Shown: positions 15,451 through 58,503 of the stretch, one piece after another
Layout of the letters: the number at the start of each line of letters is the position of its first letter
Numbering within the stretch: the stretch's first letter is position 1
Assembly: GCA_964545575.1 (NCBI GenBank)
Contig: CAZJFL010000004.1
Coordinates: 9,512-73,511, forward strand
DNA from: an uncultured Planctomycetales bacterium
GTDB lineage: Bacteria > Omnitrophota > Gorgyraeia > Gygaellales > Profunditerraquicolaceae
Direction: 5' to 3'
Length of the DNA: 64,000 bases
Program-made: the position numbers and the translations under genes
Notes under the pieces: generated by a model
Seen by the model: the letters and a program-made list of their open reading frames with translations, nothing else
Databases searched by the model: none
Told to the model about the DNA's origin: nothing

Positions 15451-15607
15451 ATAAGTTACGGAGCGAAGCGACGTAACTTATAAGTGCGAATTGACCCCGC
15501 CCTTTCTTAATCTATCGGCTATTTATTTTAGAAAGGGCGGGGTAAGTTCAGCCAACAGACTTACGTTCATTTCCTGCCTGCCGGCAGGCAGGCATTCCGT
15601 AAGTCTG
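15448..15607. promoter_or_regulatory. Structured intergenic leader: three consecutive stem-loops including one copy of the CCTGCCTGCCGGCAGGCAGG palindrome element (15556-15607)
   Basis: Inverted repeats cacataagttacg/cgtaacttataagtg, accccgccctttct/agaaagggcggggt, and cagacttacg..cctgcctgccggcaggcagg..cgtaagtctg. Confidence 0.6.
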
Positions 15608-32399: not shown

Positions 32400-34478
32400 T
32401 TAAGTCTGCAAAATTGTGTCGGCTGCGGCTAAAACATCATCTACGCTGATAGCTTTAAGGCAGGCGAACTCTTTTTTACAGTTATGCGCCAGGCATTCAA
32501 TACATCCTACTGCCTTATGCAGATATCTGTCTTTTTTGCCTACCGGCCCCCAGCGTTTAGGGCTTAAGCCTTTTTGGCCTCTGCCGAAAATAGCAATTAC
32601 CGGCGTGTCGACACTAGAAGCAATATGCACCGGGCCGGAATCGTTAGAAATAAATAAAGCGCACCTCTTAAGCAAACTGGCTAATTGGCTCAGAGAAGTC
32701 TTACCCGCCAGATTAATTGCCGGAGAGCGCATATTCGCCAGCGCAAGCTCTGCTTTTTTTGTATCTTTTGGGCCGCTGATAATCAGGGTTTTAAAACCGT
32801 ATTTTTCTATTAACCTGTCGGCGACCTGGGCGAATCTTTCGTTGGGCCAGACCTTAGAAGGGCAGCTTGCCCCGGGATGAATAGCCAGAAGCCTATCTGT
32901 TTCTTTTATCCCCTCCTGGCGGAATAAACTCTCCACCCATTTTTCTGCTTCCGGCCTGAGGGGGATATATAATTCTTTATCTTGGGGAGTAATCCCTAAG
33001 TGCGCCAGCAGTCCAAGATTATAATCCAGCTCATGCTTTTCTCCCAGCTGTTTAGTATGCTTTATCCGGTCGGTAAGCAAAAACCCCATTTTACGGTGGT
33101 AACCTATTCTTCTGGGTATCCCGGAAAAAAACGCCACTAGATGCACGCGGTTGGTAGGATGAAGGATGAGTGCCAAATCAAACTTTTTCTGTTTTAAGTT
33201 TAAAGCAAACTTAATAGACCCCAGCCAGCTTTTCTCTTTTGCGTCTTTATCGTAAATAATCACTTCATCCAGATAAGGATTACCTTCCACTATCTCTTTT
33301 GTATAGGGGCTGACCATCATCGCGATATAGGCATGAGGGTATTTATCCCGGAGCGCCTTAATTACCGGTGTCGATAAAAGCACGTCTCCGACCCTATCCG
33401 TACGCGCTATTAAGATACGTTTAAAATCTGCCTCTAGACCCTGAACCCTGCCTGCCTGCCGGACAGGCAGGAACCCTGAACCCTGAACTAAAATATTTAT
33501 TACCTGCCTTAATACATCTTCTACCTTTACCAGGTGCATGCAGTCTAAAGTTCGGAACCTGCATTCTGCCTTCTCGCAGGGCCGGCAGAAGATTTCTTTT
33601 TTTACCGTAGCCCAAACACCCGACCAGGGCCCGTATTTTTTATCGCTGGTCGGGCCAAAGATTGCCACAATAGGTAGATCTAAATAACTGGCCAGATGCA
33701 GGACTGCGCTGTCATTAGTAATCAGGAGGCTTGCTTTTCTTAGTAAAGCGCCCAGCTGCGAGATCGTGGTCTTGCCGGCAAGGTCCAACAGGGAATGCGA
33801 AGATTGCTCGCCGATATATTTTGTGATAAATGCATCGGCCCTATCTCCTACCAGAATAACCTTTGCTGCTAATTCTCCTATAATCCGTTCTGCAAGCTGG
33901 GCGAACTTTTCTTTGGGCCATCTTTTAGTAGAGCTTCTGGCTCCCGGAGCAATAATAACTATTTTATCGTGTTGGGCTATGCTGTTTTCTTTGAATATAT
34001 TTTCGACATATTCCCTGTCCTGCGGCCCGATGCATAGGGAGCTCTCTATTGTCTTTTTCGCCTCCGAACCCTGAACTCTGCCTGCCTGCCGGACAGGCAG
34101 GAACTCTGAACCCTGAACTCTACTTAAATGCCTATCCTTCATATGTCCGCTACCCCGCAAAAAAATAGGCGCTTTGTATCTGGCAGGAAGCAACAATCCG
34201 AAAAAACTGTTGCGTAAATCCACGACCAGATCAAAATGTTCTTTTTGAAGGCGGCCAAACAGCTTTATTTTTTCTTTCAGCCGCGCATGTTTGTCATAGA
34301 TAATCAGGTTATCTACGGCAGGATTAGCCTCAAATATTCCTTTCGGGCGGGGGCCTGAGACAACGGTGATTTTAGCCTGCGGAAACTCCTTCCTTAAATA
34401 ATCCAGCGCCGGCAGGGTCAGTATCACATCTCCGATATTACTTAAGGTAACGAACAATATTTTATTGATCTTTGTCAT
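32400..34478 (-). CDS. Tandem fusion of two GT9 ADP-heptose:LPS heptosyltransferase modules
   Basis: Two full GT9 units (each ~330 aa with the GDVILTLPA / GDVLLSTPV N-motif). The palindromic repeat element encodes LPVRQAGRVQG at the inter-module junction and in a loop of module 1. Confidence 0.8.
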   Translation of the reverse strand: MTKINKILFVTLSNIGDVILTLPALDYLRKEFPQAKITVVSGPRPKGIFEANPAVDNLIIYDKHARLKEKIKLFGRLQKEHFDLVVDLRNSFFGLLLPARYKAPIFLRGSGHMKDRHLSRVQGSEFLPVRQAGRVQGSEAKKTIESSLCIGPQDREYVENIFKENSIAQHDKIVIIAPGARSSTKRWPKEKFAQLAERIIGELAAKVILVGDRADAFITKYIGEQSSHSLLDLAGKTTISQLGALLRKASLLITNDSAVLHLASYLDLPIVAIFGPTSDKKYGPWSGVWATVKKEIFCRPCEKAECRFRTLDCMHLVKVEDVLRQVINILVQGSGFLPVRQAGRVQGLEADFKRILIARTDRVGDVLLSTPVIKALRDKYPHAYIAMMVSPYTKEIVEGNPYLDEVIIYDKDAKEKSWLGSIKFALNLKQKKFDLALILHPTNRVHLVAFFSGIPRRIGYHRKMGFLLTDRIKHTKQLGEKHELDYNLGLLAHLGITPQDKELYIPLRPEAEKWVESLFRQEGIKETDRLLAIHPGASCPSKVWPNERFAQVADRLIEKYGFKTLIISGPKDTKKAELALANMRSPAINLAGKTSLSQLASLLKRCALFISNDSGPVHIASSVDTPVIAIFGRGQKGLSPKRWGPVGKKDRYLHKAVGCIECLAHNCKKEFACLKAISVDDVLAAADTILQT
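33438..33488. repeat. Palindromic element family 1 copy (GAACCCT heptads flanking CCTGCCTGCCGGACAGGCAGG), in-frame at the GT9-GT9 junction
   Basis: Seen directly; encodes VQGSGFLPVRQAGRVQG on the minus strand. Confidence 0.9.
34066..34119. repeat. Palindromic element family 1 copy, in-frame within GT9 module 1
   Basis: gaaccctgaactctgcctgcctgccggacaggcaggaactctgaaccctgaactc. Confidence 0.9.
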
Positions 34479-35603: not shown

Positions 35604-36633
35604 GAGCCCCTAAAAGGCTCGGCCTTGTCTTATCCCGAAGCAGCCCTAATATAGCCGAAGATAATTCTGTGGGCTCGGCCGGTTTAACCAGCAAGCCGTT
35701 ATATCCGTCTTTAATCAGGCTTCTTATCCCTCCGATATCAGAGCCGATCACGGCCAGGCCCGCTGCCATCGCCTCGATCAGGCTTAAACCTAAACCTTCT
35801 GCGAGCGAGGGCATGACAAATAAATCCATCACCGCCAAAATATCCCTGGCCTCCTTAACCGAAGGTATAAAATAAACATTTTGTGTAATTCCTAAACGGC
35901 GGGCCAGAGCTACTAAGTCCTGTTTCATTTTGCCGTCTCCCACGATCAGTAACCGGGCATCGGGAAACGTACCTAAAACCTCTTTCATCGCCTCGATAAG
36001 ATAAATATGGCCCTTGACATCCGATAACCTGGCTATAATCCCCACTACCGGGCCGTTGCCCAAGCCTAATTCTTTCTTTTTTTCAACTCTGAACTCTGCC
36101 TGCCTGCCGGACAGGCAGGAACTCTGAACTCTGAACTTATCTACGTCTATACCATTATGTATTAAGCTGATATTTTCTTCCTTCACCTTAAAATCTTCGA
36201 TAAGATGTTCTTTAACCGCTTCGCTGATGGCAATAACTTTTAGCCCCCAGCAGGGAAAAATCCGGCGGAAAATACGCTGCTTAAAGAAACCGTGGCAGGT
36301 GGAAATGTATGGCTTTCCTGAAAAACGGTGGATTAAACCGGCTACTACCTGGGTGACGCGCGTATTAGCATGAATGATCTCTATATTTTTTTCTTTTACC
36401 TGTTTAAGCAACTTCAAAATACTGATAAAAACCCCGGGGCTTACCTCCTGTTTTGTTGCCAGCGGCACCGGGATATGGACTATGCCTTCCTGGCTAAACT
36501 TAGAGAGAAGCTCTCCCCCTCCCGAAGCCAGATATACCTGATGGCCTCTTTTTCGCATACCGCCGGCTAAAGTCAGGAGATAGCTGGTAACTCCGCCGGT
36601 GTTCAAATGGTTTGTCAAATAGAGAATATTCAT
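35515..36633 (-). CDS. GT4 glycosyltransferase (WaaG/RfaG-like)
   Basis: GT4 N-terminal GG motif (TNHLNTGGVTSY), C-terminal E-x7-E region; palindromic element inserted in the inter-domain linker. Confidence 0.8.
   Translation of the reverse strand: MNILYLTNHLNTGGVTSYLLTLAGGMRKRGHQVYLASGGGELLSKFSQEGIVHIPVPLATKQEVSPGVFISILKLLKQVKEKNIEIIHANTRVTQVVAGLIHRFSGKPYISTCHGFFKQRIFRRIFPCWGLKVIAISEAVKEHLIEDFKVKEENISLIHNGIDVDKFRVQSSCLSGRQAEFRVEKKKELGLGNGPVVGIIARLSDVKGHIYLIEAMKEVLGTFPDARLLIVGDGKMKQDLVALARRLGITQNVYFIPSVKEARDILAVMDLFVMPSLAEGLGLSLIEAMAAGLAVIGSDIGGIRSLIKDGYNGLLVKPAEPTELSSAILGLLRDKTRPSLLGAHAQEFIRQHFSQEDMLGETEKLYLEYRHV
36085..36137. repeat. Palindromic element family 1 copy, in-frame in the GT4 linker (encodes KFRVQSSCLSGRQAEFRVE)
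   Basis: caactctgaactctgcctgcctgccggacaggcaggaactctgaactctgaactt. Confidence 0.9.
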
Positions 36634-38723
36634 TTTAATAATTTATCTACCGCCTGCAATACCTCTTCCGGACTGATTGCCTGCATACAATCAATTTTTT
36701 TACATTTTGGTTTATAACAAGGGCTGCAGGGAAGATCTTTTTTAACTACGAGATAGTTTTTTGCCGGTGCCAGATGCCGTAAAGGGTCTGTTGGGCCGAA
36801 AAGAGCTACAAAAGGGGTGCCTGCGGCGGCAGCGATATGCAGGGGCGCTGAATCCGAGGATATATAGACGTTGCATTTTTTAATCAGGCAGGCGAGCTGA
36901 TTCACCGTGGTCTGGGCGGTGGCGTTGATCGGGGCGACCCCTTTGACGCCAGCCATAATCAGGTTAGCCTGCGGCAGATCTTTTTCTGTTCCGGTTAAAA
37001 TAACCCGTATATCCCGGCGCGATAACTCTTCGCACAACTTTAGCATATTACCTAGCGGCCAGTTTTTAGTAAGCCAACGAGAGCTTGCGCTGATATTGAC
37101 TCCGATTAGTTTCTGGTTGGGGCTGATCCAGCTTGATTTCAATAATTCCTCTATATAAATCCGGTCTTCTTCGGCCGGCCAAAGCTCTAAAGCCGTATCT
37201 TTTAAATCTATACCCAGCATCTTCAATATCCTGAATTGATGCGTTAGCGGGTCTATTTGCGGCTTTTCGTCTTTGATGCGGTGGTTAAGCAGAAAGCCGA
37301 ATTTTTTATTATCATATCCGTAACGGTCTAGGGAGAAAGTAAGCCCGGATAAGATATGGCTCTTACGGTTATTTTGCAGGTCAATCACAATATCGAAGTT
37401 CTTCTTCCTTAAAGAAGCGCCTAATTTTAACAGGCCGCGCAGACCTTTATCTTTATTCTGCAAATCGCAAACCAGCAATTCATCGATATAAGGGCAACGC
37501 AAAAGCGCATCTTTTGAGGCGTCTCCCACCAGAAAGGTGATTTTATAATTCTGCGCCGGGAATTTTTCCCTTACCGCCTTGATTGCCGCCGTAGAAAGTA
37601 TGATATCCCCCAGAGAGCTAAACTTGATCAGCAAAATCTTAAAATTCTCCAGTGCTTCTTTATAGACATTCGTGGTATTCCTGACTAATAGCTCTGCCGT
37701 ATATTTTTCCTTTACTTTTTGATAAGCGTTTTCCGCCAGGACCCGCGCTAACTCCCGGTCATTAAATATTCTTAAGGCGGCCTCTGCCATGCTTGCCGGG
37801 TCAGCGGGAGGAACGAGCAGCCCGTTTTTACCGTCTTCGATAATATCGATCACGCCTCCTACGGTAGTCGCAACTACCGGCACTCCGACAGCCTGCGCCT
37901 CTAAGATCGCCCTCGGAAAAGCATCGTGCGTAGTGGAGGCCAATACTACCAAGTCTAAGTTCCTTAAAATTCCGGGGACATCCTTCTGATTACCTAAAAA
38001 TTCGGTGCAGTGCCACAACCCCAGCCTCCTGACTAAAACCTGCACCTGTTCTTTATAGACTTCTTTGGACGGCGGGGCATCGCCGACTATCCAAACCTTT
38101 AGATGAGGGATGGTTCTTGCGACCTTGGCCATCGCCTTAATAAAATGCAGGTGACCTTTTAGCGGCGTGATCCTTCCGATTATCCCTACATTAAACTCTT
38201 CTAATTTTTTCTTCTCCGGGGCTTTATACTGGAATCTTTCCAAGTCTACGCTGCGCGGGATTAAACGTATCCTCTCCTGAGGCACGCTGAAATCTTCGAT
38301 CATGTGCTTGGCCACAACCTGGCTCGGGCAGATCACAAATTTGGCCCAACCCATCGGGTAACTGAATAAATGCTTGGTATAATATCCGTGGCAGGTAGTG
38401 ACCAGCGGCCGCTTAGTCTGTCTACAGGCAAAATAGGCAATCCAGGCAGGTACGCGCGAACGCGCATGTACAATATCTATCTCTTCTTTTCTAATGATCT
38501 CGGATAACTTAGGGATCATTTTGAGGATATTAAAAAAGGATTTTTTATGCACTGGCAGCTGATAGTGGATAACGCCGTTCTCCTCTAATTCTTTAACCAG
38601 CGCTCCGCCGCCAGAGACCACCACCGCCTTCATCCCGAGCTTCGCCAGGCGAATTGCCAGATCAACGGTCCCGGTCTCCACCCCTCCTACATTTAGTTCC
38701 GGCAGTATCTGTAATATTTTCAT
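36630..38723 (-). CDS. Fusion of GT4 glycosyltransferase (N-terminal) and GT9 heptosyltransferase (C-terminal)
   Basis: N-half resembles GT4 (ILQILPELNVGGVETG), C-half GT9 (FSSLGDIILSTAAIKAV); 697 aa. Confidence 0.75.
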   Translation of the reverse strand: MKILQILPELNVGGVETGTVDLAIRLAKLGMKAVVVSGGGALVKELEENGVIHYQLPVHKKSFFNILKMIPKLSEIIRKEEIDIVHARSRVPAWIAYFACRQTKRPLVTTCHGYYTKHLFSYPMGWAKFVICPSQVVAKHMIEDFSVPQERIRLIPRSVDLERFQYKAPEKKKLEEFNVGIIGRITPLKGHLHFIKAMAKVARTIPHLKVWIVGDAPPSKEVYKEQVQVLVRRLGLWHCTEFLGNQKDVPGILRNLDLVVLASTTHDAFPRAILEAQAVGVPVVATTVGGVIDIIEDGKNGLLVPPADPASMAEAALRIFNDRELARVLAENAYQKVKEKYTAELLVRNTTNVYKEALENFKILLIKFSSLGDIILSTAAIKAVREKFPAQNYKITFLVGDASKDALLRCPYIDELLVCDLQNKDKGLRGLLKLGASLRKKNFDIVIDLQNNRKSHILSGLTFSLDRYGYDNKKFGFLLNHRIKDEKPQIDPLTHQFRILKMLGIDLKDTALELWPAEEDRIYIEELLKSSWISPNQKLIGVNISASSRWLTKNWPLGNMLKLCEELSRRDIRVILTGTEKDLPQANLIMAGVKGVAPINATAQTTVNQLACLIKKCNVYISSDSAPLHIAAAAGTPFVALFGPTDPLRHLAPAKNYLVVKKDLPCSPCYKPKCKKIDCMQAISPEEVLQAVDKLLK

Positions 38724-40723
38724 AAAATCCTCTTTAGCGCCTCGCTTACGGTCAGGTTATCAGAAAGGGGCTGGATTTCTGGCTTTTTTTCCCACAACTC
38801 CTCTAGCACCCTCCCTAAATTAGCTGCCTCGCTGATATATATATTTTTTCTCTCTATAAGGCTAGCCAAGAACCTCTTGTGTTTTGCCCCTACTCCTGCG
38901 GCAGCAAAAGTCAAAACATAACGGCGGCTCGCCACAGCCTCGGAAATCATAGAGATGCTTTCCGGAGAAGTTATTACCAGGCGGCTCGCGCCTAGTATCC
39001 CGCCCACGGCAAAGGGCAGGTTTTTCTCATTGGCGATCACCAGAAACCTGCAGCGCGGATAATCGCTGAATTCCGCCCTGACTAACTCTTCTGCCTCTTT
39101 CGGGGTCCGGCGCGAAGTAGTCACCAGTATCAGCGCGTCATTTTTCTCTAAGAATGCCTTTACCTGGCTGATTACTTCCCGCAGAGAATCCCGGCTTAAG
39201 CGGAAATCCTTATTATCTCCTCCGATAAGCATCCCCAAAACCAGGTCTTTGTCAATCTTCGCCAAAGACTTCAAGAGCGCGGCTTCCTCTTTCAGCAAGT
39301 CCTCGTCTATTAAGTTTAACGCGCCCTCGATTAGCACGGTATTTTTCTTAAAAACCGGCCTGTGGCTTTGGCTAAAGGAAGCCAAACCCTGCCTGCCGGC
39401 AGGCAGGCATTGCCTTGCTGGCTGATCGTGCCGGGGTATAATCACCAAGTCAAATCTCTGCATACTGAAAACAGAAGGCCGCATCAGTACTACCGACTTA
39501 GCCAAGTTTTCCTTGGATAAAATAAAATTAACCGCGGCGAGCCCAGAACCGCAGGAAATAATCAAGTCGTATTTTTTTCTCGTCAGGGCTTGATAGGTAT
39601 CGGCGGTTAAAAATTTCTTCAGGCACCAGAGGCATCCCTGACAGTGGTATTTTCCGGCGAGGCAGGCGCTAAAAGTAAGGGCCTGGCTGCTCAGCCTATT
39701 TTTAAACTTTACCTCTATAATCTCGCTCTGGCTGTTTATCCCCCGGTCTTTAAAATGCCTTTGGGCTATCGCGGCCGTAGCCTGTGCCTGGCTGAGGTGG
39801 CCGGCTTTACCATCGCTTAAAATTAGGATATTCCTCTCTTGGGAATACTTCCAGATTTTATAAAACCAGAGGTATTGTTCAGGGTACCTGCTGATATAAT
39901 CCTGGAATATCTGCATCAATCCTTCTAGATTACGGCGGACGTCTTCTTCGCTATTACCGGTTTTTATCAGCTTAAAGGGGGGCACAAAAATAATTTTCAT
40001 ATACGGGCCGCGCAGGCGAACATAAAAACCCGGGATAATTGCCGCATCGTACTTTAAAGCCAGCCTCACCGCCCCGCTTGCCATAGAGGCATCCCGGCCG
40101 AAGAATCTAACCGGAACGCCGGAACTTCCTCCCTGATCAACGGTCATACCTATCGCCTGGTTATTTTTCAGTATCTGAATTAACTGACGGGTCTGATTTT
40201 TCCTCTGGACTAATTTAGCCCCTTTTTGGCTGCGGTAGGCATTCAGCAGCCGGTTTAAACGGAGAAGCTTTTGTTCGCGTATAAGTAAGAATAAAGGGAA
40301 GCCTAAGTTTGTGCAGACGACGTTAGAGATTTCCCAGCTTCCTCCGTGCGCCCCCAAAAGGATTACTCCTTTTCCCTTTTGAAAACCCTCCTCGATATGC
40401 TGCCTGCCTTCGCAAGTGACGTATTTGGCGATATATTGCTTATTCACCCGGGGAATAAGCAATATTTCTATCAGGCTCTGCCCGAAGTTGCGGTAAAAAT
40501 CTTTTGCGAGCTGTTTTAACTGGCGCGGTGAGAGCCTGTCCCCGAAAGCGGTTTTCAGGTTTGCGTAGGCGACTGCCCGGTGCTTGGCATCAAAACAATA
40601 AAACAATTCACCGATGGCCCGGCCTAAAAAGAAACTTACAAACAAGGGCATTACCCTAAAAATCGGCCCTGCCAGCCTAAAGATTATATATCCTGTCCAA
40701 TCGGCTAAAGAACTCTTCTTCAT
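38720..40723 (-). CDS. Lipid A biosynthesis acyltransferase (LpxL/HtrB family) fused to an ELM1/DUF1022-like C-terminal domain
   Basis: N-terminal 300 aa matches lauroyl/myristoyl acyltransferase; C-terminal domain of unknown function contains a palindromic element insert (QPARQCLPAGRQGLASFSQ). Confidence 0.65.
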   Translation of the reverse strand: MKKSSLADWTGYIIFRLAGPIFRVMPLFVSFFLGRAIGELFYCFDAKHRAVAYANLKTAFGDRLSPRQLKQLAKDFYRNFGQSLIEILLIPRVNKQYIAKYVTCEGRQHIEEGFQKGKGVILLGAHGGSWEISNVVCTNLGFPLFLLIREQKLLRLNRLLNAYRSQKGAKLVQRKNQTRQLIQILKNNQAIGMTVDQGGSSGVPVRFFGRDASMASGAVRLALKYDAAIIPGFYVRLRGPYMKIIFVPPFKLIKTGNSEEDVRRNLEGLMQIFQDYISRYPEQYLWFYKIWKYSQERNILILSDGKAGHLSQAQATAAIAQRHFKDRGINSQSEIIEVKFKNRLSSQALTFSACLAGKYHCQGCLWCLKKFLTADTYQALTRKKYDLIISCGSGLAAVNFILSKENLAKSVVLMRPSVFSMQRFDLVIIPRHDQPARQCLPAGRQGLASFSQSHRPVFKKNTVLIEGALNLIDEDLLKEEAALLKSLAKIDKDLVLGMLIGGDNKDFRLSRDSLREVISQVKAFLEKNDALILVTTSRRTPKEAEELVRAEFSDYPRCRFLVIANEKNLPFAVGGILGASRLVITSPESISMISEAVASRRYVLTFAAAGVGAKHKRFLASLIERKNIYISEAANLGRVLEELWEKKPEIQPLSDNLTVSEALKRIL
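39365..39420. repeat. Palindromic element family 2 copy (GCCAAACC-CTGCCTGCCGGCAGGCAGG-CATTGCCTTGC), in-frame in a CDS
   Basis: Shares more than 35 bp of identity with the intergenic copy at 41771-41816. Confidence 0.9.
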
Positions 40724-41717
40724 TTTTGTTTATCTTTAATTCTATACCTAGCACAAACACTCCCAACTCCCAACTTCCAGCTCCTGGCTGCGGGAGCCGC
40801 ACCGCATCCTTCTCGGTAGTAATGATGGTGTCTATGCCTTTGTTTTTCGATGCCCTTGCGATATGATCCATATCGTAAGGGGCATAATTATGGTGATCGG
40901 GGAAGCGTAAGGATAAACCTACCTTAATCCCTAAATTATCAACCAGGTTTTCAAAGGAATCGGGGTCGCCGATGCCGCAAACCAAAGTTACCTGCCTGCC
41001 TCTAAACACATCCGCACCAAAGAACAGAGAGGGTTTATCGATTTTATAAAAACCAGCGGGGTTATGCATAGCTTCAAAAACTGCGGCTTTGGCGTTAATG
41101 CTCCTTAAGAAATCTTTGATCTCCTGCGTATCCGGATTAAGGTTAGTCTTAGTTAAAACAAAAATATCCGCACGCTTTAAAGAAGAGAGCGGTTCGCGTA
41201 AAATCCCCCGGGGTAACATCTGGCGGTTTCCAAAGGGGTCGGTCGCGTCGATGGTTACGATCTCCAAATCCTTCTTGAGACGCCACTGCTGGAAGCCGTC
41301 ATCCAGGATGACCGTATCCAGGCCGTATTCGCTCACTGCCCTGTTTGCGCCGCGCCTCCTGTTTGCGTCTACTATTACCGGGACATCGGGCAGGCGCCGC
41401 CTGAGCATCAAAGGCTCATCCCCTATACCCACCGCTCTTTTATAACCGCGGCTTAAAACCGCTAACTTACGGCCCCGGCCTGCTAAATAGCGGGCAATAA
41501 ACTCTACCAGCGTAGTTTTGCCTGTTCCGCCTACGGTAATATTGCCGACGCTAATAACTTTACAATTCAGGCGATCAGGCTTAAGCAGAGAAAAAAAGAG
41601 CAAGATCCTGATTACCAGGCCGTAAAAAAGAGAGCAAATAAAGAGAAAAATCTTTAAAATTCCGGCGATAAAACCGCGCTCTTGGTCAGTAGCTAAATTA
41701 TAGAGGTATCTAAGCAT
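40677..41717 (-). CDS. lpxK: Tetraacyldisaccharide 4'-kinase
   Basis: P-loop VGGTGKT and the LpxK family fold; 346 aa. Confidence 0.88.
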   Translation of the reverse strand: MLRYLYNLATDQERGFIAGILKIFLFICSLFYGLVIRILLFFSLLKPDRLNCKVISVGNITVGGTGKTTLVEFIARYLAGRGRKLAVLSRGYKRAVGIGDEPLMLRRRLPDVPVIVDANRRRGANRAVSEYGLDTVILDDGFQQWRLKKDLEIVTIDATDPFGNRQMLPRGILREPLSSLKRADIFVLTKTNLNPDTQEIKDFLRSINAKAAVFEAMHNPAGFYKIDKPSLFFGADVFRGRQVTLVCGIGDPDSFENLVDNLGIKVGLSLRFPDHHNYAPYDMDHIARASKNKGIDTIITTEKDAVRLPQPGAGSWELGVFVLGIELKINKNEEEFFSRLDRIYNL

Positions 41718-41755: not shown

Positions 41756-41878
41756 ATGGCTTTGGCTTGTATGGAAAGCCAAACCCTGCCTGCCGGCAGG
41801 CAGGCATTGCCTTGCCGGCTTATGGCTTTGGCTTATGTGGAAAGCCAAACCATTGCCTTACCGGCTTATGGCTTTGGT
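41756..41878. repeat. Composite intergenic copy of palindromic element family 2, with duplicated GGCTTTGGCTT-GGAAAGCCAAACC arm and core palindrome
   Basis: Seen directly; the two arm copies are 41756-41784 and 41823-41851. Confidence 0.85.
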
Positions 41879-42000: not shown

Positions 42001-42723
42001 TTAGTCGTCTGTGGACATAAAGGAGAGGTTTCTTTCGATAAAACTGATAAGTTTCTCCTGAAGTGCGGGGGATAGGTGGCTAAACTCAACCCCCACCCCG
42101 GGATAGAAATGCGGCTGGATCTGTTTATCGGAAAGCCAGACTACCTTTGCCTCAAGCTCCATTTCTTCCTGCTTCGGTAGAAGTTTAAACTTAATCACTA
42201 CTTCGTCCCCGAGCTTAAACTTATCGCATCCGTAGATATAGGCCCCCACTGCGCTTAAATTAAGGATATCTACCTTCAGGCAGGCCGGATTCCTTTCGTA
42301 CTTATTCTTTAACTCGATTTTTATATCGATGGGCAGACGCTTAAACCTGCGGCGCAGCTGCATTTTCTGAATATTTTCGATGACCTTATCTTCTGCAAAG
42401 CTGTTTATGGCTGCTTCCTCGGTGGCATAAATATCTATCGCCGCGTCCAGCCCCGAGACGGAAAACACGTTTTTCAGGTGCGCCGGTATGCTGGCAAACT
42501 TCATCCTGCCGTGGTTGTTCATTATTTCTTTATAGGCGATGACGACCACGGAAATCCCCATGTAATCTACGGCCTCTACTTCTTCGAAGTTGCAGAGAAT
42601 ATCAGCATAGCCGTCACGGATGCACTGGCCGACGACCTCAATGAGGTTGGCCGCATTGACGTCGATGCGGCCGGTTAAGTCCAGTATGACTACTTTATCT
42701 TTTATCCTGGCCTTAATCTCCAT
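42001..42723 (-). CDS. STAS (anti-sigma-factor antagonist-like) domain fused to a C-terminal PilZ c-di-GMP-binding domain
   Basis: N-terminal SpoIIAA-like STAS (VVILDLTGRIDVNAANL); C-terminal RRxxR (LRRRFKR) and D-x-S-x-x-G (DILNLSAVGA) PilZ motifs. Confidence 0.7.
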   Translation of the reverse strand: MEIKARIKDKVVILDLTGRIDVNAANLIEVVGQCIRDGYADILCNFEEVEAVDYMGISVVVIAYKEIMNNHGRMKFASIPAHLKNVFSVSGLDAAIDIYATEEAAINSFAEDKVIENIQKMQLRRRFKRLPIDIKIELKNKYERNPACLKVDILNLSAVGAYIYGCDKFKLGDEVVIKFKLLPKQEEMELEAKVVWLSDKQIQPHFYPGVGVEFSHLSPALQEKLISFIERNLSFMSTDD

Positions 42724-42730
42724 CGGTTTT

Positions 42731-43120
42731 CTATTCTTTCAGGCGCAGGGGAATCAGCGAAATCATCGTGCTTACCCCGCGCAAAATATTATCCATATCG
42801 CAGGGCTTAGTCAGGTAATGGTCTGCCTCCAGGCCATAGCACTTCTTTAAAGTCTCTAGTTCCGTCTGCGCGCTGATAATAATCACCGGCCGCCACTTAT
42901 CCTTATATTTAGCCCTGACTTCTCTTAAAACATCAAAGCCGTTTAATTTAGGCATCATCAGGTCTAAAATAATCAGGTCGGGGTTATCTTCTTTGACGCG
43001 CCTTAATGCCTCTTCGCCGTCAAAGGCAGTCACCACTAGATAGCCCTCCCGAAGCAGCCTGGCCTTTATGGTTTCCACTACCTCCCGGTCATCGTCAGCG
43101 ACTAATAATTTATATGTCAT
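42731..43120 (-). CDS. Stand-alone response regulator receiver (CheY-like)
   Basis: DD acidic pocket, phospho-acceptor Asp in ILDLMMP, conserved K near the C-terminus; 129 aa. Confidence 0.85.
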   Translation of the reverse strand: MTYKLLVADDDREVVETIKARLLREGYLVVTAFDGEEALRRVKEDNPDLIILDLMMPKLNGFDVLREVRAKYKDKWRPVIIISAQTELETLKKCYGLEADHYLTKPCDMDNILRGVSTMISLIPLRLKE

Positions 43121-43153
43121 AGGCCTAATTTCCCCCCTGATATATTTTTTAAA

Positions 43154-43894
43154 TTAATATTTATAATAAGTTGCCGGTATGACCTGCGCGATGTAACGCA
43201 CCGCCTCGATGATACAGACGCGTATGGCTTTCTCCATGGGGGTGTTGGAATACATAGAGAGCCCTCCGCCTAATCCAAAGCTGCCGAAGAAGCCGCTCAT
43301 GATCGCGCCTCCCACATCAGAGGCCTGGCCTTGAACCCGGGTTGCAGCCAAGACTTCGGAAGTAGAGACGTCAACAATACGTATATCCATAGCCATATGG
43401 GATTTATTGAACGCGGCCCCTAAAATCCCTCCCAGAATACCGCTTCCCACGCTGCCTCCGCCTCCGATACCCGCCCTGCCTCCGGAAGCCTGCGGCTCAA
43501 ACTCGGTTACCGCAGCGGTAACGATTAAGTCCGCGGTTTTAATCTTGCCCCGCTGCGGGCCGCCGCTGCCTGCCTGCGTAGCTCCGGAACTGGAAAGTTC
43601 CTGTTCCTGCATCACCGCACTCAGCGCTTGCCTCTCTACTACCGAAAAACGGTTGCTGTTTACCAGGGCGGTGATCAACATCTCGCGTAACCCAGAGCCG
43701 ATCTGAAAGGTCGCCTGGGCAGCTTTCACGTCAAAATCAGCCACGGCAATGCGCGCCTTAGGCCCGGAATACGGGGGCATGGGCATTGTGCCGGCATCAT
43801 TATCGACCTGAGCTGTAGGCTGTATAGCAAAACTTAGGCAAATAAAAAAAGCTAAAACAAAGGTTACCGTTAATATTACCTTTTTCATCATCAC
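43154..43894 (-). CDS. CsgG-family secretion channel lipoprotein homolog
   Basis: Matches the CsgG core (RIAVADF.., ALVNSNRFSVVERQAL, IVDVSTSEVL); Gly-rich loop; no csgA/B/E/F nearby. Confidence 0.7.
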   Translation of the reverse strand: MMMKKVILTVTFVLAFFICLSFAIQPTAQVDNDAGTMPMPPYSGPKARIAVADFDVKAAQATFQIGSGLREMLITALVNSNRFSVVERQALSAVMQEQELSSSGATQAGSGGPQRGKIKTADLIVTAAVTEFEPQASGGRAGIGGGGSVGSGILGGILGAAFNKSHMAMDIRIVDVSTSEVLAATRVQGQASDVGGAIMSGFFGSFGLGGGLSMYSNTPMEKAIRVCIIEAVRYIAQVIPATYYKY

Positions 43895-43924
43895 TCCTCC
43901 CTTCGCATAAAAACAAGTATTATT

Positions 43925-44701
43925 TTAAATCCGCAAATATTTTCTGGAAAGGGCCACGACAAAAAGAGGCATGATAAAAATCCCGCAAAACGCCTCGAGA
44001 ATCCCTACTGCCTTGCTTAATCCTATCGGGACGATATCCCCGTAACCTACGGTGGTGAAAGTAACGGCGCTAAAATAAAATGCCTCCAAGAATTCCGGCC
44101 GAAAGAGTTCGCCGGCTTTGGATAAACCGCCCCAGAGATAAAAAATAGCGGATAAAAAAATAACCGCTAGCGCAAAAAAGAAAGCCCTGATCGGCCGTTC
44201 GCCGTAGCCCCAGACAAGATAGGAAAAAGTAAGCACTAACCAGAAAAATATATGCCTAAGTTTTACCCCGGCGCCCCTTTCCGCTTCGGCCCTGACGATA
44301 TGGTGGATTTTTTTGGGGCTGATAAAAGAATAGGCCAGGTATTTGCGGTAGCACTCCCTGGAGCGGTAAAAACAATCCGAAAAATTAACAAACTCTCCGT
44401 CCCGCTCGTAATTTATCGCCGCGTATTTATACAATAAAGAAGCGTACTCCAGGTCCCGGGAAACCTCCGACTGCCGAGCTGCCTCCTCATAATATAAGGC
44501 TGAATTAAAAAAGAGCCTCTCGCCGCATTTCTTGCTCCAGCAACCGGCTGCCGCAGCAAAACATAAAGCTGCCTGCTTATGCTGGCCTTTAGCTTTATAA
44601 ATATGCGCGGCCTCTTTAAACAAACTAAAGGCCTGGTCAAGCTCTCCCCGCGAAAGAAACTCGTGGGCCCGCTCTTCTAATAATTTGGCTTCTGTTTCCA
44701 C
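43925..44701 (-). CDS. Potassium channel (2-TM pore, TVGYGD filter) with N-terminal TPR-like cytoplasmic domain
   Basis: K+ selectivity signature TTVGYGD between two hydrophobic helices; N-terminal helical repeat domain. Confidence 0.75.
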   Translation of the reverse strand: METEAKLLEERAHEFLSRGELDQAFSLFKEAAHIYKAKGQHKQAALCFAAAAGCWSKKCGERLFFNSALYYEEAARQSEVSRDLEYASLLYKYAAINYERDGEFVNFSDCFYRSRECYRKYLAYSFISPKKIHHIVRAEAERGAGVKLRHIFFWLVLTFSYLVWGYGERPIRAFFFALAVIFLSAIFYLWGGLSKAGELFRPEFLEAFYFSAVTFTTVGYGDIVPIGLSKAVGILEAFCGIFIMPLFVVALSRKYLRI

Positions 44702-45159
44702 TGCTTTTCTATCTCTTGCCTCTGAATCTGGGTAATATAGGCATCTGCTTCTTCCATGCTTTTAAAAATATGCTGAGGCAGGGCCTTTAAAACATCAAAT
44801 ACTTTTTTAACCTGCGGCTGAAGATTAGTGATGATAATGGAACCGTTATTTTTCTCAAGCATTTCTTTTGTTTTAAAGATAACCCCCAGCCCCATACTGC
44901 TGATATAGATTACCCCCTGCATGTCAAAGATGATCAATTTGGCAGAGGCGCCTAAAACCGACCTGATCTTTTGCTCTAATTCCGGATAGGTCTCCGAATC
45001 AATAGAGCCCTCGGGAGAAATAGTAAAGACCCCCGCATGTTCCTGATTAACTTCTACACGAAGCGGCATAGCCCCTCCTTTGTTATTGCTGCATATCCTG
45101 CGGCATCCCCATTTCGTAGGAGAACTTTTTATATCCTGCGGGAACCTCAAATAGCGCAT
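44677..45159 (-). CDS. STAS domain anti-sigma-factor antagonist (SpoIIAA-like)
   Basis: STAS fold with conserved Ser in DMQGVIYISSMGLGV; likely start at the internal Met (MPLRVEV, ~45069). Confidence 0.75.
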   Translation of the reverse strand: MRYLRFPQDIKSSPTKWGCRRICSNNKGGAMPLRVEVNQEHAGVFTISPEGSIDSETYPELEQKIRSVLGASAKLIIFDMQGVIYISSMGLGVIFKTKEMLEKNNGSIIITNLQPQVKKVFDVLKALPQHIFKSMEEADAYITQIQRQEIEKQWKQKPNY

Positions 45160-45670
45160 CCGGCTGTGCGCCTGTCTTGATATTTTTGTATTCCATCATC
45201 CAGCTGCCATCTTCGGCTGCGCTTTTGACCGGGATATTCAAGCCGGGAACAATCCACTGCAAAGTAACCCATCTCCTGCCGCTATTGTCCGTATAAACGA
45301 TTCTGTATTTATCGGCTTTGCGGCCGTCGATGATTTCAGAGCCGATGAGCTTACGCTCTATCTCTCCGGGCATCTTTTCTGCGCTGGCGGCGATATTGGC
45401 AGGATTAAACGGTTCCTCCATATACATCTGCTGCGCGGGCATCAGGAGCCAGATTACCTTTTTATCCAGGCGCGTTATACTAATGCCCTGAGGGGTCTCC
45501 ATGCGCGTTTTTTGTTTGCTGGCAAAGATTTTTCCCTGAAAAGTCCTGCCTCCGGCGGTATTGCTGACATCCGCGGAAAAATCCTCTCCCAGGGCAATCC
45601 CTCTTAAAATAAAAACAGTAGCGATGATCAGCGATAGGGATAAAACTCTCTTTATTTTATTTTGCATCAT
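45083..45670 (-). CDS. Secreted hypothetical protein (signal peptide, beta-rich)
   Basis: Cleavable N-terminal signal, no recognisable family; first gene of the signalling cluster. Confidence 0.45.
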   Translation of the reverse strand: MMQNKIKRVLSLSLIIATVFILRGIALGEDFSADVSNTAGGRTFQGKIFASKQKTRMETPQGISITRLDKKVIWLLMPAQQMYMEEPFNPANIAASAEKMPGEIERKLIGSEIIDGRKADKYRIVYTDNSGRRWVTLQWIVPGLNIPVKSAAEDGSWMMEYKNIKTGAQPDALFEVPAGYKKFSYEMGMPQDMQQ

Positions 45671-45742: not shown

Positions 45743-47032
45743 TTAAGGTAACAGGCGCTTTATAACTTCCAGATTCCTGCGGCTGGAGCCCCGGTTGCTT
45801 TCCAGCAACTCTTTTGCGCGCCGGCTTAACTCTCTGCCCAGAGAAGAACCGGATAATAAATCTTTAACTGCCTGCTCTAGCCCTGCCTGATCCTGCACTG
45901 ATATTGCCGCCTGATGGTTTAAGAAAAGCCCTGCGATATCTTTAAAATTAAACATGTATGGCCCGAATAAAACCGGCTTACCAAAGGCTACCGGCTCTAA
46001 GATATTGTGCCCGCCGGTTTTGGCTAAACTGCCGCCTATAAAAATAACCTCTGCGATAGCGTAGTAATTCAGAAGCTCGCCGATGCTATCCAAAATAAAT
46101 ACCGGCCTAGCAATACAATTGCAGGCTGCAAGGGGCAGCTGCGAAGCTAAAACCGGACGGAATCCGGCGCTGGAAACCAGATTTTCTATGCCCTTTGCCC
46201 GCTCGGGGTGCCGGGGGGCAATAAGCAGTTTCAGCTCAGGATAAGTAAGGCATAATTCTTGATATGCTCCGAGAATTATTTCTTCCTCTTGCGGATGCGT
46301 GCTTCCGGCAACGAAGAGCTTCTCGCCAGGCAGAAGCCCTAACTTAAGCTTATAGGCAGCGTAATCTTTCTCGGTATCTACGGTAATATCGAACTTCATG
46401 TTTCCAGTGACCTTGATTTTATCCGGCGCAACGCCTAAACTCCGTAGCCTTTCGGCATCGCGCTCTGTCTGGAGGCAAAAGAAATTGACCTTATTTAGTA
46501 TAGGCTTGGCCAAAAATCTGACCAAGCGATAGCCTCCAAGGGAGCGGTCAGATATTCTTCCGTTTACCACCAGTATAGGGATATTTTTCTTATAGAGGCA
46601 GGAAATGAGATTCGGCCAGATTTCTGTTTCAGCCAAAATAAAAACTTTGGGCCTGACCTTATTTATCACGTTCCTGATAATAAAACTAAAATCCAGCGGC
46701 AGGTAAGTGACTAAGTCCCCGTCTCTGGCAATTGTTTTGGCAATTTTATTACCGGTGGCGGTGACAGTAGAAATGACGAATTTTTTAGCGGGGTAGGCCT
46801 TCCTTAATTCTTCGATAAGCACCTTTACTGCCTGCGTTTCCCCGACGCTGACGGCGTGAATCCAGATCGGCTGATCAAGCGCTAAACCTTTCGGCAATAC
46901 CCCCAGGCGCGCCCAAAATCCGCGGTGAAACTTCCCGCGCAATAAATATATTGGCAGATATACGATGCTAATGACCAGAAATATTAAGTCGTAAATGATA
47001 AACATATTACATCGCCGCCCTATCCCTGTCAT
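45743..47032 (-). CDS. waaA: 3-deoxy-D-manno-octulosonic acid transferase
   Basis: GT30 KdtA N-terminal (IWIHAVSVGE) and C-terminal domains; 429 aa. Confidence 0.88.
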   Translation of the reverse strand: MTGIGRRCNMFIIYDLIFLVISIVYLPIYLLRGKFHRGFWARLGVLPKGLALDQPIWIHAVSVGETQAVKVLIEELRKAYPAKKFVISTVTATGNKIAKTIARDGDLVTYLPLDFSFIIRNVINKVRPKVFILAETEIWPNLISCLYKKNIPILVVNGRISDRSLGGYRLVRFLAKPILNKVNFFCLQTERDAERLRSLGVAPDKIKVTGNMKFDITVDTEKDYAAYKLKLGLLPGEKLFVAGSTHPQEEEIILGAYQELCLTYPELKLLIAPRHPERAKGIENLVSSAGFRPVLASQLPLAACNCIARPVFILDSIGELLNYYAIAEVIFIGGSLAKTGGHNILEPVAFGKPVLFGPYMFNFKDIAGLFLNHQAAISVQDQAGLEQAVKDLLSGSSLGRELSRRAKELLESNRGSSRRNLEVIKRLLP

Positions 47033-48300
47033 GCCGAGGGTTCATTAACCCTTCCTAAAAACAAAATATTCCCTGTTTTTTTCTGTTCTATGATGAATAT
47101 AAATGGGTGGTCTGCTTTGAATATTTTTGGTTCTTCTGGTATAGATACACATTCCTGCATAATCACCGCTGTTGCTGCTGCTGCTTCAGTCCCCTCTTCA
47201 TTCACTTCCACAAATGCCTGATGAATTACCTGGTCTATATTCAATCGTTTATTGCCGGTCATCCCTGAAAAATCTGCTTCCTCTCCAAAATCAATACCTA
47301 GTGTAAAGGCTGTCGGCATACCCATCTCTGCAAGGTCTTTAGCCATAAAATACTCGGTTTCAAATTTAAATTTGGGTATATATACCTTAACTTCCCGTTC
47401 GTGGAGGCCTTTTCTCCATTCAGAAAGCTTTTCGGTAGTCAAAGATTCTTCTAAAGTTTTTAGATCGCCGCTCTTGGGAAGAAGGATAAGCATTGATAAA
47501 TCCCGCCCTTTGTAAGGAAGCTCCAGAATCTGTATTTGGTCATTCTCAAAATAACCGAGTTCTTCTATTTTAGCCAGATGCATCATTTGAACTTTAGCCG
47601 ATCTCTCAGGAGTGACCTTAAAATCTTCCTCTTTTGTAAGTTTAGGGTCGAATTGTTTAAACCACTTTCCTTTAAAATAAATGGCATTAGTGAGAATAAG
47701 ACGCGTCAAACCATTGATTACTCCAGATGGAATTAAGTCTTTTATCCTCTTATTTGTGCGCTCCTCTACCCAGTTATTTATAGTCAGGCGGGATGGCTCA
47801 GGCTCGCGAATAAAATCAAGGTTAGTCACCTTACCGCCGTAATATTTATCAATGAGATTAAAGTATTCCGGAAGAAATTGGTAATCTTTCTCTGCCCAAA
47901 GGGCATTTGCAGTCGATAGGATATAATCTTTATCTTTTTTATTTATTTCATTATAAATCTCCGTAAAAGCGTTCCTTCGTACATTGTCATCTATCGGAAA
48001 ATGAAAAACCGCCTGAATCTCTTCTTGGGTCTTACCCCGCGCTCCTTCATAAGCCATGGCTAAAGCAGTTGAAATACTATATGGCGAGAAGAATATATTG
48101 CCTTCTTTTGATTTATATTTCGCGTATAAATCAAAGGCGAACTGGTTGTTGGCCGATACTATGTCCGTGACACTAACAGGACTCGCAGCATTATTGCTCG
48201 TCTGTGAAAAGGCGGGATTAGGAAATAAGAGAACGGGAATAAAAAGCAAAATAATAAATAGTGACTTTTTAGACATACATACCTCCTGTTTTAGCCGCAT
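47029..48300 (-). CDS. Serpin (serine protease inhibitor) with signal peptide
   Basis: Full serpin core: NAIYFKGKW, hinge/RCL region, C-terminal FKADHPFIFIIE...ILFLGRV. Confidence 0.85.
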   Translation of the reverse strand: MRLKQEVCMSKKSLFIILLFIPVLLFPNPAFSQTSNNAASPVSVTDIVSANNQFAFDLYAKYKSKEGNIFFSPYSISTALAMAYEGARGKTQEEIQAVFHFPIDDNVRRNAFTEIYNEINKKDKDYILSTANALWAEKDYQFLPEYFNLIDKYYGGKVTNLDFIREPEPSRLTINNWVEERTNKRIKDLIPSGVINGLTRLILTNAIYFKGKWFKQFDPKLTKEEDFKVTPERSAKVQMMHLAKIEELGYFENDQIQILELPYKGRDLSMLILLPKSGDLKTLEESLTTEKLSEWRKGLHEREVKVYIPKFKFETEYFMAKDLAEMGMPTAFTLGIDFGEEADFSGMTGNKRLNIDQVIHQAFVEVNEEGTEAAAATAVIMQECVSIPEEPKIFKADHPFIFIIEQKKTGNILFLGRVNEPSA

Positions 48301-57514: not shown

Positions 57515-58503
57515 TAAAATGGGGAACGCCCTGCCTTAAATTTTAGGTAATCCTGAATGATCTTTTTATGGTCAAAGGCAAAATCTAACTTCAAAACCTC
57601 GCTTAATTTTACTATTCTTATTGCCTTGGCATCATCGCCTGCTTTGGGCTTACCTTCTGCCCTTACCAGAAAAACCGTGTCGATAGTGTGAAATCGCGGG
57701 TCGCGCTGGGGGTCAGAATAGGTATGAAACTGTTTTACTTCTACAGCGTCCAAATTTGTCTCTTCTTTTACCTCCCTAATTACCGCCTCCTCTAAACTCT
57801 CGCCGTAATCCAGGAAGCCGCCGGGCAGGGCAAAGCCAAAAGGCGGGTTGCTGCGCTCGATCACCACAATCCCATCATCCCCGCCTGCCGGCGAGACGGG
57901 AATCTCAATGATAGCATCTGCCGTCATAAAAGGCCCCTGCTGTAATTTCCGGGTAACATAATCAAGATAGCTTATCACTCCTTTATTAAAGACGTCATAA
58001 GCCTCTAAATCGTACAGGCAGAAGATTATCTCTTTTAAGCTGGTCTTATTTTCACGCAGGTGCTTTAACACTTCCTGGGCCATGATTTTGGCGGATGCCA
58101 ACAGAGGAAATCCGCCTACGCCGCAGCCTAAGGCCGGAAAAGCGATTGATTCTATCTTTAATTCTTCGGCGACTTCCAAAGCGCTCTTACAGGAATTCCT
58201 GATTTTGATTTCATCAGTTTCGAAAATCCCTGCCTGCCGGCAGGCAGGCATCCCCATAGTCGCGGCATGGATTACATATTTAGCCGGTAAGCTCCCGGCA
58301 GAAGTAAATACCGCCTCGCCTATTTTTATGGGGCCTTTTTTTAGCGCTTCCTCCTCTATTGATTGGCCGCCCTTTTTCCTGATCGCGCCGGCAACCCCGC
58401 CGCCCATGGCTAACTTATTATTGGCGGCATTGACAATAGCCTCAACTTTTAATTCCGTAATATCGCCTTGGCAGATTTTAATTTCGGTCTCTTTAATCAG
58501 CAT
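57514..58503 (-). CDS. Macro domain (ADP-ribose binding/deacetylase-like) fused to NUDIX hydrolase
   Basis: N-terminal macro (CQGDITEL..AIVNAAN..GGGVAGAI); C-terminal Nudix box GGFLDYGESLEEAVIREVKEETNL; palindromic element in-frame in the macro domain. Confidence 0.75.
   Translation of the reverse strand: MLIKETEIKICQGDITELKVEAIVNAANNKLAMGGGVAGAIRKKGGQSIEEEALKKGPIKIGEAVFTSAGSLPAKYVIHAATMGMPACRQAGIFETDEIKIRNSCKSALEVAEELKIESIAFPALGCGVGGFPLLASAKIMAQEVLKHLRENKTSLKEIIFCLYDLEAYDVFNKGVISYLDYVTRKLQQGPFMTADAIIEIPVSPAGGDDGIVVIERSNPPFGFALPGGFLDYGESLEEAVIREVKEETNLDAVEVKQFHTYSDPQRDPRFHTIDTVFLVRAEGKPKAGDDAKAIRIVKLSEVLKLDFAFDHKKIIQDYLKFKAGRSPF
58222..58255. repeat. Solitary core palindrome CCTGCCTGCCGGCAGGCAGG in-frame in the macro domain (encodes MPACRQAG)
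   Basis: Seen directly at 58229-58248. Confidence 0.9.

Follow-up and report, generated by a model that had tools for sequence, protein, structure and literature searches.

A clade-specific gene mosaic between waaA and lpxK of Omnitrophota with a predicted c-di-GMP-binding STAS-PilZ protein and a divergent CsgG-like protein

A stretch of 64,000 nucleotides from an uncultured bacterium placed by GTDB in the Omnitrophota (contig CAZJFL010000004.1, positions 9,512 to 73,511; hereafter the window) contains, between the lipid A genes waaA and lpxK, six minus-strand open reading frames (ORFs) spanning positions 45670-42001 and designated g1 to g6 in transcription order. They encode a secreted DUF4412 protein, a STAS protein, a K+ channel-type protein, a CsgG-like envelope protein, a stand-alone receiver (REC) and a fusion of STAS with the PilZ domain, which is known as a module of cyclic di-GMP (c-di-GMP) signalling. 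A previous reading of the same DNA, made from the letters alone (the sequence-only reading), took all six for one novel secretion or envelope-signalling system with the product of g1 as a possible substrate. Does such an unusual set of phospho-, messenger- and ion-sensing parts really make one machine, or does it combine genes with separate histories? According to the data presented below the six-gene set is better not regarded as one system, and the units that deserve attention are the STAS-PilZ protein, with the receiver, and the CsgG-like pair. The cluster as a whole is best described as a clade-specific mosaic, in which STAS-PilZ, REC and CsgG-like proteins would be tied in a proposed c-di-GMP-operated envelope partner switch, and to this overall picture we give an even chance of being right. 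Omnitrophota, none of them cultured, are for the most part ultra-small and are suspected of depending on hosts (PMC10066038). Next to nothing has been learnt so far about their signalling and envelope.

All six ORFs named in the sequence-only reading were found on the minus strand, and the genes are real, since many full-length homologues exist for each protein except g1. Their arrangement is identical in two independent metagenome assemblies and is, therefore, not an assembly artefact. All products pass Pfam thresholds, including the STAS, PilZ, CsgG and K+ channel domains expected by that reading, and all checked motifs are intact; NCBIfam and Pfam agree at the superfamily level only. The first gene begins 72 nt after waaA and is separated by 13 nt from g2, which overlaps g3 by 25 nt, while the spacers g3-g4 (33 nt), g4-g5 (33 nt) and g5-g6 (7 nt) are operon-like. 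In the 283-nt space between g6 and lpxK a perfect palindrome of 20 nt stands before a T-rich tail and probably marks the end of the g1-g6 transcription unit. This palindrome was the only notable element found by promoter and terminator scans, as their counts did not exceed those in shuffled sequences. Rfam matched no family in the spacers and none at threshold across the 64 kb. Probably g1-g6 are transcribed as one unit.

Gene neighbourhoods were compared in 80 species loci anchored on STAS-PilZ and 80 metagenome loci anchored on the CsgG-like gene, for which ORFs were called and clustered and recurrent clusters were annotated. Named homologues of g3, g6 and g4 are almost all labelled Candidatus Omnitrophota. 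In about 70% of the 80 species STAS-PilZ is located between waaA and lpxK, as in the window, and is not accompanied by the other four genes of the five-gene core g2-g6; about 30% of species carry it elsewhere. Its default order is dprA-topA-xerC-waaA-[0-5 variable genes]-STAS/PilZ-[HAD, 90-aa membrane protein]-lpxK-lpxL/ELM1-GT, where GT stands for a glycosyltransferase. Of 53 species loci 37 have waaA no more than 5 kb before STAS-PilZ, of 54 loci 37 have lpxK no more than 3.5 kb behind it, and both borders are present in 28 of the 40 loci where both sides are visible. The median gap between waaA and STAS-PilZ is 9 nt, an 11-nt overlap being frequent, and a HAD phosphatase gene directly follows STAS-PilZ in 29 loci. 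In other species the variable slot is filled with genes for GreA, a deaminase, UbiA, OsmC, HAD and PALP proteins.

The CsgG-like gene has a home of its own. Its default order is permease-DUF5666(secreted)-HAD-csgG2-CsgG-like, continued by an 84-aa gene, ZIP, NikR, OprB or FeoAB, where csgG2 is a short CsgG-family paralogue (~190 aa, Pfam E=1e-4) that lies at a median distance of 1 nt from the CsgG-like gene in 58 loci. The DUF5666-HAD-csgG2-CsgG set with metal-related genes (NikR, OprB, ZIP, FeoAB) downstream makes a conserved array. The window contains neither csgG2 nor a DUF5666 gene. Translational coupling of csgG2 and CsgG-like genes is seen in most Omnitrophota (L088-L167, for example L095 7001-7732 and upstream).

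The five-gene core STAS-channel-CsgG-REC-STAS/PilZ was found only in the window and in loci L005, L006, L088, L090 and L091, which form one clade in the STAS-PilZ tree, an unbootstrapped neighbour-joining (NJ) tree of one 240-aa protein. As the whole dprA-topA-xerC-waaA...lpxK region is syntenic in this clade, conservation of the core reflects common descent and is no proof of function. A different layout, csgG2-CsgG-x-REC-pyruvate kinase-STAS/PilZ, was observed in L153 and L154. The receiver encoded there is an orthologue of g5 with 71% identity, as compared with 26-31% for other receivers, and orthologues of g5 (70-87% identity) were encountered only beside CsgG-like and STAS-PilZ genes, that is in the window clade and in these two loci. 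In L011, L029, L082/L132 and L137 STAS-PilZ directly follows the CsgG-like gene within the home locus of the latter (DUF5666-HAD-csgG2-CsgG-STAS/PilZ-NikR-OprB). Conversely, in the window clade the CsgG-like gene, minus csgG2, sits in the home locus of STAS-PilZ. Besides, non-orthologous receivers directly precede STAS-PilZ in L070, L078 and L084, and REC-GGDEF proteins do so in L023, where stop and start codons overlap, and in L053 and L054; g5 and g6 are spaced by -1 to 57 nt, as measured in 8 loci. The triad in L153/L154, together with the CsgG-STAS/PilZ pairs and the other REC neighbours, argues for a functional tie between STAS-PilZ, the receiver and the CsgG-like protein, and recurrence in the different L153/L154 layout makes this link probable. 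The neighbourhood search suggested by the sequence-only reading has, therefore, two outcomes: the core g2-g6 is kept in a narrow clade and the CsgG/REC/STAS-PilZ triad recurs, but STAS-PilZ, the channel and the CsgG-like protein normally have three separate loci. In three cases (L019 2120-3136, L081 8896-9918 and L153) STAS-PilZ was seen to be immediately preceded by a pyruvate kinase gene.

Judging by its sequence, g6 represents an uncharacterised, phylum-restricted family of putative receptors, which is the conserved anchor of the locus. It has 987 homologues, the best 120 of which are 69-90% identical to it. Over the 80 species-level loci identity to g6 varies from 64 to 77% with a median of 69%, while medians for waaA (57%), lpxK (53%) and lpxL-ELM1 (47%) in the same loci are all lower. 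Among 1.8 billion representatives of clusters at 50% identity only ~25-30 further full-length STAS-PilZ clusters were found, with 26-43% identity, and the two of them that carry a name are likewise Omnitrophota. Literature searches on STAS with PilZ and on PilZ with anti-sigma antagonist revealed no publication on a STAS-PilZ protein. Both PilZ motifs, R125xxxR129 and N155xSxxG160, are present, with R124-R126, R129, N155, S157 and G160 invariant in 22 family members, and g6 is accordingly predicted to be a c-di-GMP-binding receptor. These motifs are located at the junction of the STAS and PilZ domains. The same position of intact RxxxR and [D/N]xSxxG motifs, next to an N-terminal partner-binding domain, is typical of the two-domain PilZ adaptors YcgR, PlzD/VCA0042 and MrkH; unlike them, g6 has STAS as its N-terminal domain.

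The best matches of the cluster's STAS domains in the PDB are SpoIIAA, RsbV and other anti-sigma antagonists, and for the STAS domain of g6 these are SpoIIAA structures. Presence of two STAS domains, in g2 and g6, resembles the RsbV-RsbW-RsbU and SpoIIAA-SpoIIAB-SpoIIE modules, and Ser58 of g2, aligned with the phospho-acceptor Ser58 of SpoIIAA, preserves the canonical site. The STAS domain of g6 has no phosphorylatable serine at this position. It is occupied by Tyr54 (motif DYMGIS), invariant in 22 family members, so that this domain does not qualify as a canonical substrate for RsbW- or SpoIIAB-type kinases. Both STAS domains named in the sequence-only reading were thus confirmed in fold, but only g2 kept the serine. 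That reading also noted the lack of an RsbW-type kinase, PP2C phosphatase, sigma factor and csgA, csgB, csgE or csgF, and rightly so: none of these was found among the six genes or in ~10 kb of either flank, where Pfam likewise gave no hits to csgE, csgF, csgA or csgB, and a crude motif screen of all 64 kb revealed none either. In Pseudomonas aeruginosa a STAS partner switch under the control of a receiver feeds into c-di-GMP through the HptB-HsbR-HsbA-HsbD pathway; there the receiver forms one protein with PP2C and kinase domains, and the STAS protein, which is phosphorylated, activates a cyclase. The likeness is loose and consists in the combination of a receiver, a STAS antagonist and c-di-GMP signalling. 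In the present cluster the receiver stands alone, and it is the STAS protein itself that would sense c-di-GMP. The receiver g5 has all its functional residues intact as read from the sequence, namely D10/D11, the phospho-Asp D53, S83 and K105. No described operon matches the whole set, which agrees with its earlier designation as an unrecognised operon type.

The product of g4 is a member of a non-curli CsgG subfamily, as far as can be judged from alignments. Its CsgG domain (PF03783) spans profile positions 8-201 of 210 and was detected with E=3.3e-38 and 131.6 bits (cut-off 20.8), while the NCBIfam equivalog of curli CsgG, which demands 505 bits, gave only 27. The family profile matches E. 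coli CsgG in the PDB at E=1e-5, and homologues across Omnitrophota are 75-89% identical. A curli-type CsgG system requires a constriction loop with stacked rings of Tyr51, Asn55 and Phe56 (PMC4594475). The MAFFT alignment with CsgG of E. coli K-12 places a 10-aa deletion in the constriction loop of g4, which removes Tyr51; Phe56 is aligned to Ala and Asn55 to Gln or Lys, and the nearby aromatic residue is Gly in most family members. The protein g4 resembles CsgG of the E. coli csgDEFG/csgBAC system in belonging to its Pfam family and in being alignable over the core and around the TM1 hairpin, where it has an 8-aa Gly-rich insertion; it differs in the constriction residues, in a longer TM1, in a C-terminus ~31 aa shorter and in having, within the clade, no lipobox. 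Gly-rich amphipathic segments of g4 align with TM1 and TM2 of CsgG. An AlphaFold2 (AF2) model built from 21 sequences with 75-89% identity was poor, with a predicted local distance difference test score (pLDDT) of 49, and was set aside as unusable in favour of the profile search against the PDB and the alignment.

The lipobox is not canonical in the window copy (VLAFFIC/LSFA), and the clade relative P0247 has no Cys at all, while other Omnitrophota homologues carry L(A/S)GC. Since the canonical lipobox is lacking, this copy is not supported as a lipoprotein. Hence, of the CsgG-family lipoprotein and amyloid-secretion-type channel of the sequence-only reading the family membership has stood, the lipoprotein has not, and the channel is putative. 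In the CsgG-like proteins of the window clade (window, P0242 and P0247) loss of the lipobox is accompanied by loss of the adjacent csgG2 gene. CsgG-family proteins are known outside curli operons; one of them is HfaB of the Caulobacter holdfast anchor HfaA/HfaB/HfaD, and NCBI names homologues of g4 as the "CsgG/HfaB family". Genes similar to hfaA or hfaD are lacking among the neighbours, as judged from Pfam hits only. Elsewhere in the phylum the constant partner of the CsgG-like protein is the short paralogue rather than CsgE or CsgF. A CsgG-family protein with such a partner and without the curli constriction would widen the range of this channel family. Literature searches on Omnitrophota with CsgG and with c-di-GMP, as well as within two Omnitrophota genome papers, returned nothing relevant.

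The genes g2 and g3 probably make a separate clade-specific module, composed of a phosphorylatable STAS protein and a channel, and no support for its link to the rest was found outside the clade: in the 160 anchored loci neither gene was ever registered near the CsgG-like or STAS-PilZ gene beyond this narrow group. The STAS protein of the g2 type occurs in the window clade only, always directly upstream of the channel (gap from -25 to +62 nt). Most likely its translation starts at ATG 45069 behind the ribosome-binding site AAAGGAGG, and not at 45159, which agrees with gene calls in other assemblies. The start codon of g3 is GTG. The K+ selectivity filter TTVGYGD occupies residues 216-222, with G219, G221 and D222 invariant. 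The AF2 model of g3 (pLDDT 86.7) opens with six antiparallel helices (residues 2-127), behind which come one more helix and M1-pore helix-M2, and the pore superposes on KirBac3.1 over 84 columns with a root-mean-square deviation of 2.6 (Foldseek). The core with its filter is thus of the KcsA/KirBac type. Unlike these channels, g3 has an N-domain similar to SNAP or TPR proteins and an extra helix with WGxGERP, and has no RCK/TrkA or Kir-type cytoplasmic domain. The similarity is weak: in Pfam the first 100 residues matched SNAP with 19.4 bits, less than the cut-off of 25, and Foldseek pointed to Sec17, alpha-SNAP and KLC-TPR (E ~5e-3, TM ~0.4). The third conserved hydrophobic helix, residues 144-167, precedes M1 and is followed by the invariant WGxGERP, so that the two-transmembrane K+ channel proposed earlier is right in its domain and filter and incomplete in its topology. 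With the canonical orientation of the pore the 140-aa N-domain, which has no signal peptide, would be put outside the cell.

The top 120 homologues of g3 listed are 255-271 aa long (most of them 258-259) and 54-75% identical to it, the named ones belonging to Omnitrophota; within the window clade identity is 66-75%. Those with 55-60% identity were sampled in six lineages and turned out to be in six unrelated contexts. A constant partner of the channel was sought in these contexts and not found: genes for PAS-GGDEF-HD, PilZ or REC proteins lie nearby in some lineages, without any pattern. In one other lineage the gene directly upstream of the channel encodes pyruvate kinase (L172 3867-4922). 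Together with STAS-PilZ and the CsgG-like protein this SNAP-like channel is among the best-conserved products in the loci examined, above the neighbouring essential lipid A enzymes, and none of the three was found characterised or mentioned in the papers searched.

As to g1, the sequence data indicate that it is most simply a recent genome-specific insertion, a bystander which is part of no conserved system. None of the five other loci with the core contains it, and in L005, L006 and L090 the STAS gene directly follows waaA. Among ~170 related loci it forms a singleton cluster, apart from L151. A PDB sequence search gave no match, and the repeat organisation of known CsgG/HfaB substrates is not seen in its sequence. 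The assumption that the adjacent secreted protein is exported by the CsgG-like protein is, therefore, very unlikely, since every relative bearing the core lacks g1. In L151, which belongs to a distant lineage with 69% CsgG identity, a DUF4412 gene (9322-9903) is situated two genes downstream of the CsgG-like gene; the genes between them look Nudix-like and FAH-like from a reading of their sequences.

Based on these data one can assume that the mosaic was built in the variable waaA-lpxK slot from phylum-wide genes that usually live apart. The resident of the slot would be g6, which was presumably joined by the CsgG-like gene, deprived of its paralogue partner, and by the orthologous receiver g5; the pair g2-g3 may then have been added upstream, and the DUF4412 gene probably came in the present genome alone. 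By analogy with two-domain PilZ adaptors, binding of c-di-GMP at the RxxxR/NxSxxG site of g6 would re-orient the STAS domain, and this might expose or hide its partner-binding face. Since the phospho-Ser of RsbV and SpoIIAA is an invariant Tyr in g6, c-di-GMP may replace phosphorylation as the switch. A kinase encoded elsewhere would phosphorylate the receiver g5, which could serve as a second input or as the switched partner, and the output would be at the envelope, via the CsgG-like protein and/or synthesis of Kdo2-lipid A. The most extended form of this idea, in which the phylum-specific and very slowly evolving STAS-PilZ protein is a phosphorylation-independent c-di-GMP switch coupling the messenger and a CheY-like input both to the Kdo2-lipid A genes and to a non-curli complex of the CsgG/HfaB type, is speculative and in our opinion rather unlikely to hold in full. 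If it is true, a STAS domain switched by c-di-GMP and not by serine phosphorylation would be a new wiring of partner switching.

Several observations weigh against even the less ambitious partner switch. The ties between any two products are predicted from sequence and gene context alone. Genes of plainly unrelated kinds (for GreA, a deaminase, UbiA and OsmC) are found in the waaA...lpxK slot, and topA and xerC belong to the conserved block, so that adjacency can in this phylum be inherited without function. The two CsgG/STAS-PilZ layouts lie on neighbouring branches of the single-protein NJ tree and may go back to one ancestral juxtaposition; two independent juxtapositions were considered as a firm claim and dropped, because the tree is unbootstrapped and relies on one short, highly conserved protein. 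The CsgG-like and STAS-PilZ genes are not translationally coupled, since direct gaps between them are 111-244 nt, and with the pLDDT of 49 the pore of g4 remains putative. One may then suppose that no two products cooperate and that long co-directional arrays of Omnitrophota simply gain and pass on unrelated genes. Such pure juxtaposition is in line with the location of 56 out of 59 ORFs of the window on one strand, with the changing content of the slot (HAD and PALP genes included), with the lack of a constant neighbour of the channel and with preservation of the core only in relatives where the whole region is syntenic. It is, nevertheless, doubtful, because it leaves unexplained why the CsgG-like gene, the g5 orthologue and STAS-PilZ meet in two layouts with different flanks, one in the home of STAS-PilZ and the other in the home of CsgG, why at least four lineages have a REC or REC-GGDEF gene before STAS-PilZ, the stop and start codons overlapping in one of them, and why g5 and g6 stay so closely spaced.

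The default position of STAS-PilZ permits another assumption, that this protein primarily regulates biogenesis of Kdo2-lipid A, and hence of the outer membrane, and that its CsgG, REC and channel neighbours are secondary. The STAS protein MlaB, which binds MlaF, offers a model for binding of STAS-PilZ to a putative enzyme or ABC ATPase. Location between waaA and lpxK in the majority of species, frequent stop/start overlaps of -11 nt with waaA and the HAD phosphatase gene downstream favour this role. The same block, however, includes topA, xerC and dprA, so that conservation of gene order is not specific for lipopolysaccharide; almost a third of the species have STAS-PilZ elsewhere, and its interaction with any lipid A partner is putative. 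We consider this explanation unlikely. Far less probable, and in fact hardly tenable, is the single machine in which the CsgG-like channel exports g1 under phospho-, c-di-GMP- and K+-control. Tight co-directional packing with ribosome-binding sites, a single overlap and a terminator-like hairpin that comes after g6 only, confirmation of every domain, reproduction of the arrangement in independent assemblies and the DUF4412 homologue of L151 are all compatible with it. But at the genomic level an otherwise identical cluster is kept without g1 in the five other core loci, g2 and g3 are never near the CsgG-like or STAS-PilZ gene outside the clade, the constriction and the lipobox of g4 are disrupted, and g1 does not look like a CsgG or HfaB substrate. 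What survives of the single envelope-signalling system of the sequence-only reading is the probable link between the CsgG-like protein, the receiver and STAS-PilZ.

Table 1. Position and assignment of the genes and sequence elements of the locus and its flanks (coordinates of the window; GT, glycosyltransferase)
Feature	Position (strand)	Length	Assignment and support
g1	45083..45670 (-)	195 aa	Secreted DUF4412 protein; N-terminal signal peptide; Pfam E=4e-10
g2	44677..45069 (-)	130 aa	Single-domain STAS protein; Pfam STAS E=2e-17; TIGR00377 61 bits
g3	43925..44701 (-)	258 aa	K+ channel-type protein; Ion_trans_2 (PF07885) E=7e-15
g4	43154..43891 (-)	245 aa	Divergent CsgG/HfaB-family envelope protein; signal peptide; Pfam CsgG
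g5	42731..43120 (-)	129 aa	Stand-alone CheY-like receiver; Response_reg (PF00072) E=4.7e-27
g6	42001..42723 (-)	240 aa	STAS-PilZ fusion; Pfam STAS E=3e-12, PilZ (PF07238) E=8.5e-16
waaA	45743..47032 (-)		Kdo transferase; Pfam Glycos_transf_N E=3e-61; upstream flank, left border of variable slot
lpxK	40677..41717 (-)		Lipid A 4'-kinase; Pfam LpxK E=1e-79; downstream flank, right border of variable slot
lpxL-ELM1	38720-40723 (-)		Fusion of lipid A acyltransferase (lpxL) and Mito_fiss_Elm1; 3' of lpxK
GT4-GT9	36630-38723 (-)		Fusion of GT4 and heptosyltransferase (GT9)
Serpin gene	47029-48300 (-)		Full-length serpin; signal peptide; Pfam E=4e-124; between xerC and waaA
Palindrome after g6	41785..41804	20 nt	Perfect palindrome CCTGCCTGCCGGCAGGCAGG, then GTTTGGCTTT; minus-strand terminator-like (terminator scan)
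Full copies of CCTGCCTGCCGGCAGGCAGG	15573-15592, 39388-39407, 41785-41804, 58229-58248
Partial copy of CCTGCCTGCCGGCAGGCAGG	33447-33462

An anti-phage defence reading, prompted by a match to NCBIfam HalA (19.5 bits against a cut-off of 250), was rejected, as PADLOC gave only weak generic receiver and helical matches. The order of the lpxL-ELM1 and GT4-GT9 fusions after lpxK is kept across the phylum. The serpin gene overlaps the start of waaA by 4 nt; it is unique to the present genome and absent from all ~90 syntenic loci examined. The strand shared by 56 ORFs of the window is the minus strand, and all 2-kb bins but one show a negative GC skew.

The palindrome found after g6 is dispersed in the window, where four full copies and one partial copy were detected; 17 matches to the pattern were counted, while 0.04 were expected. 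It looks like an element of the type of repetitive extragenic palindromes (REP) or miniature inverted-repeat transposable elements (MITE), doubling as a terminator hairpin. The copy after g6 is flanked by direct repeats of 30 and 27 nt (41756-41877), and one copy lies in frame within the lpxL-ELM1 ORF (...LPAGRQ...).

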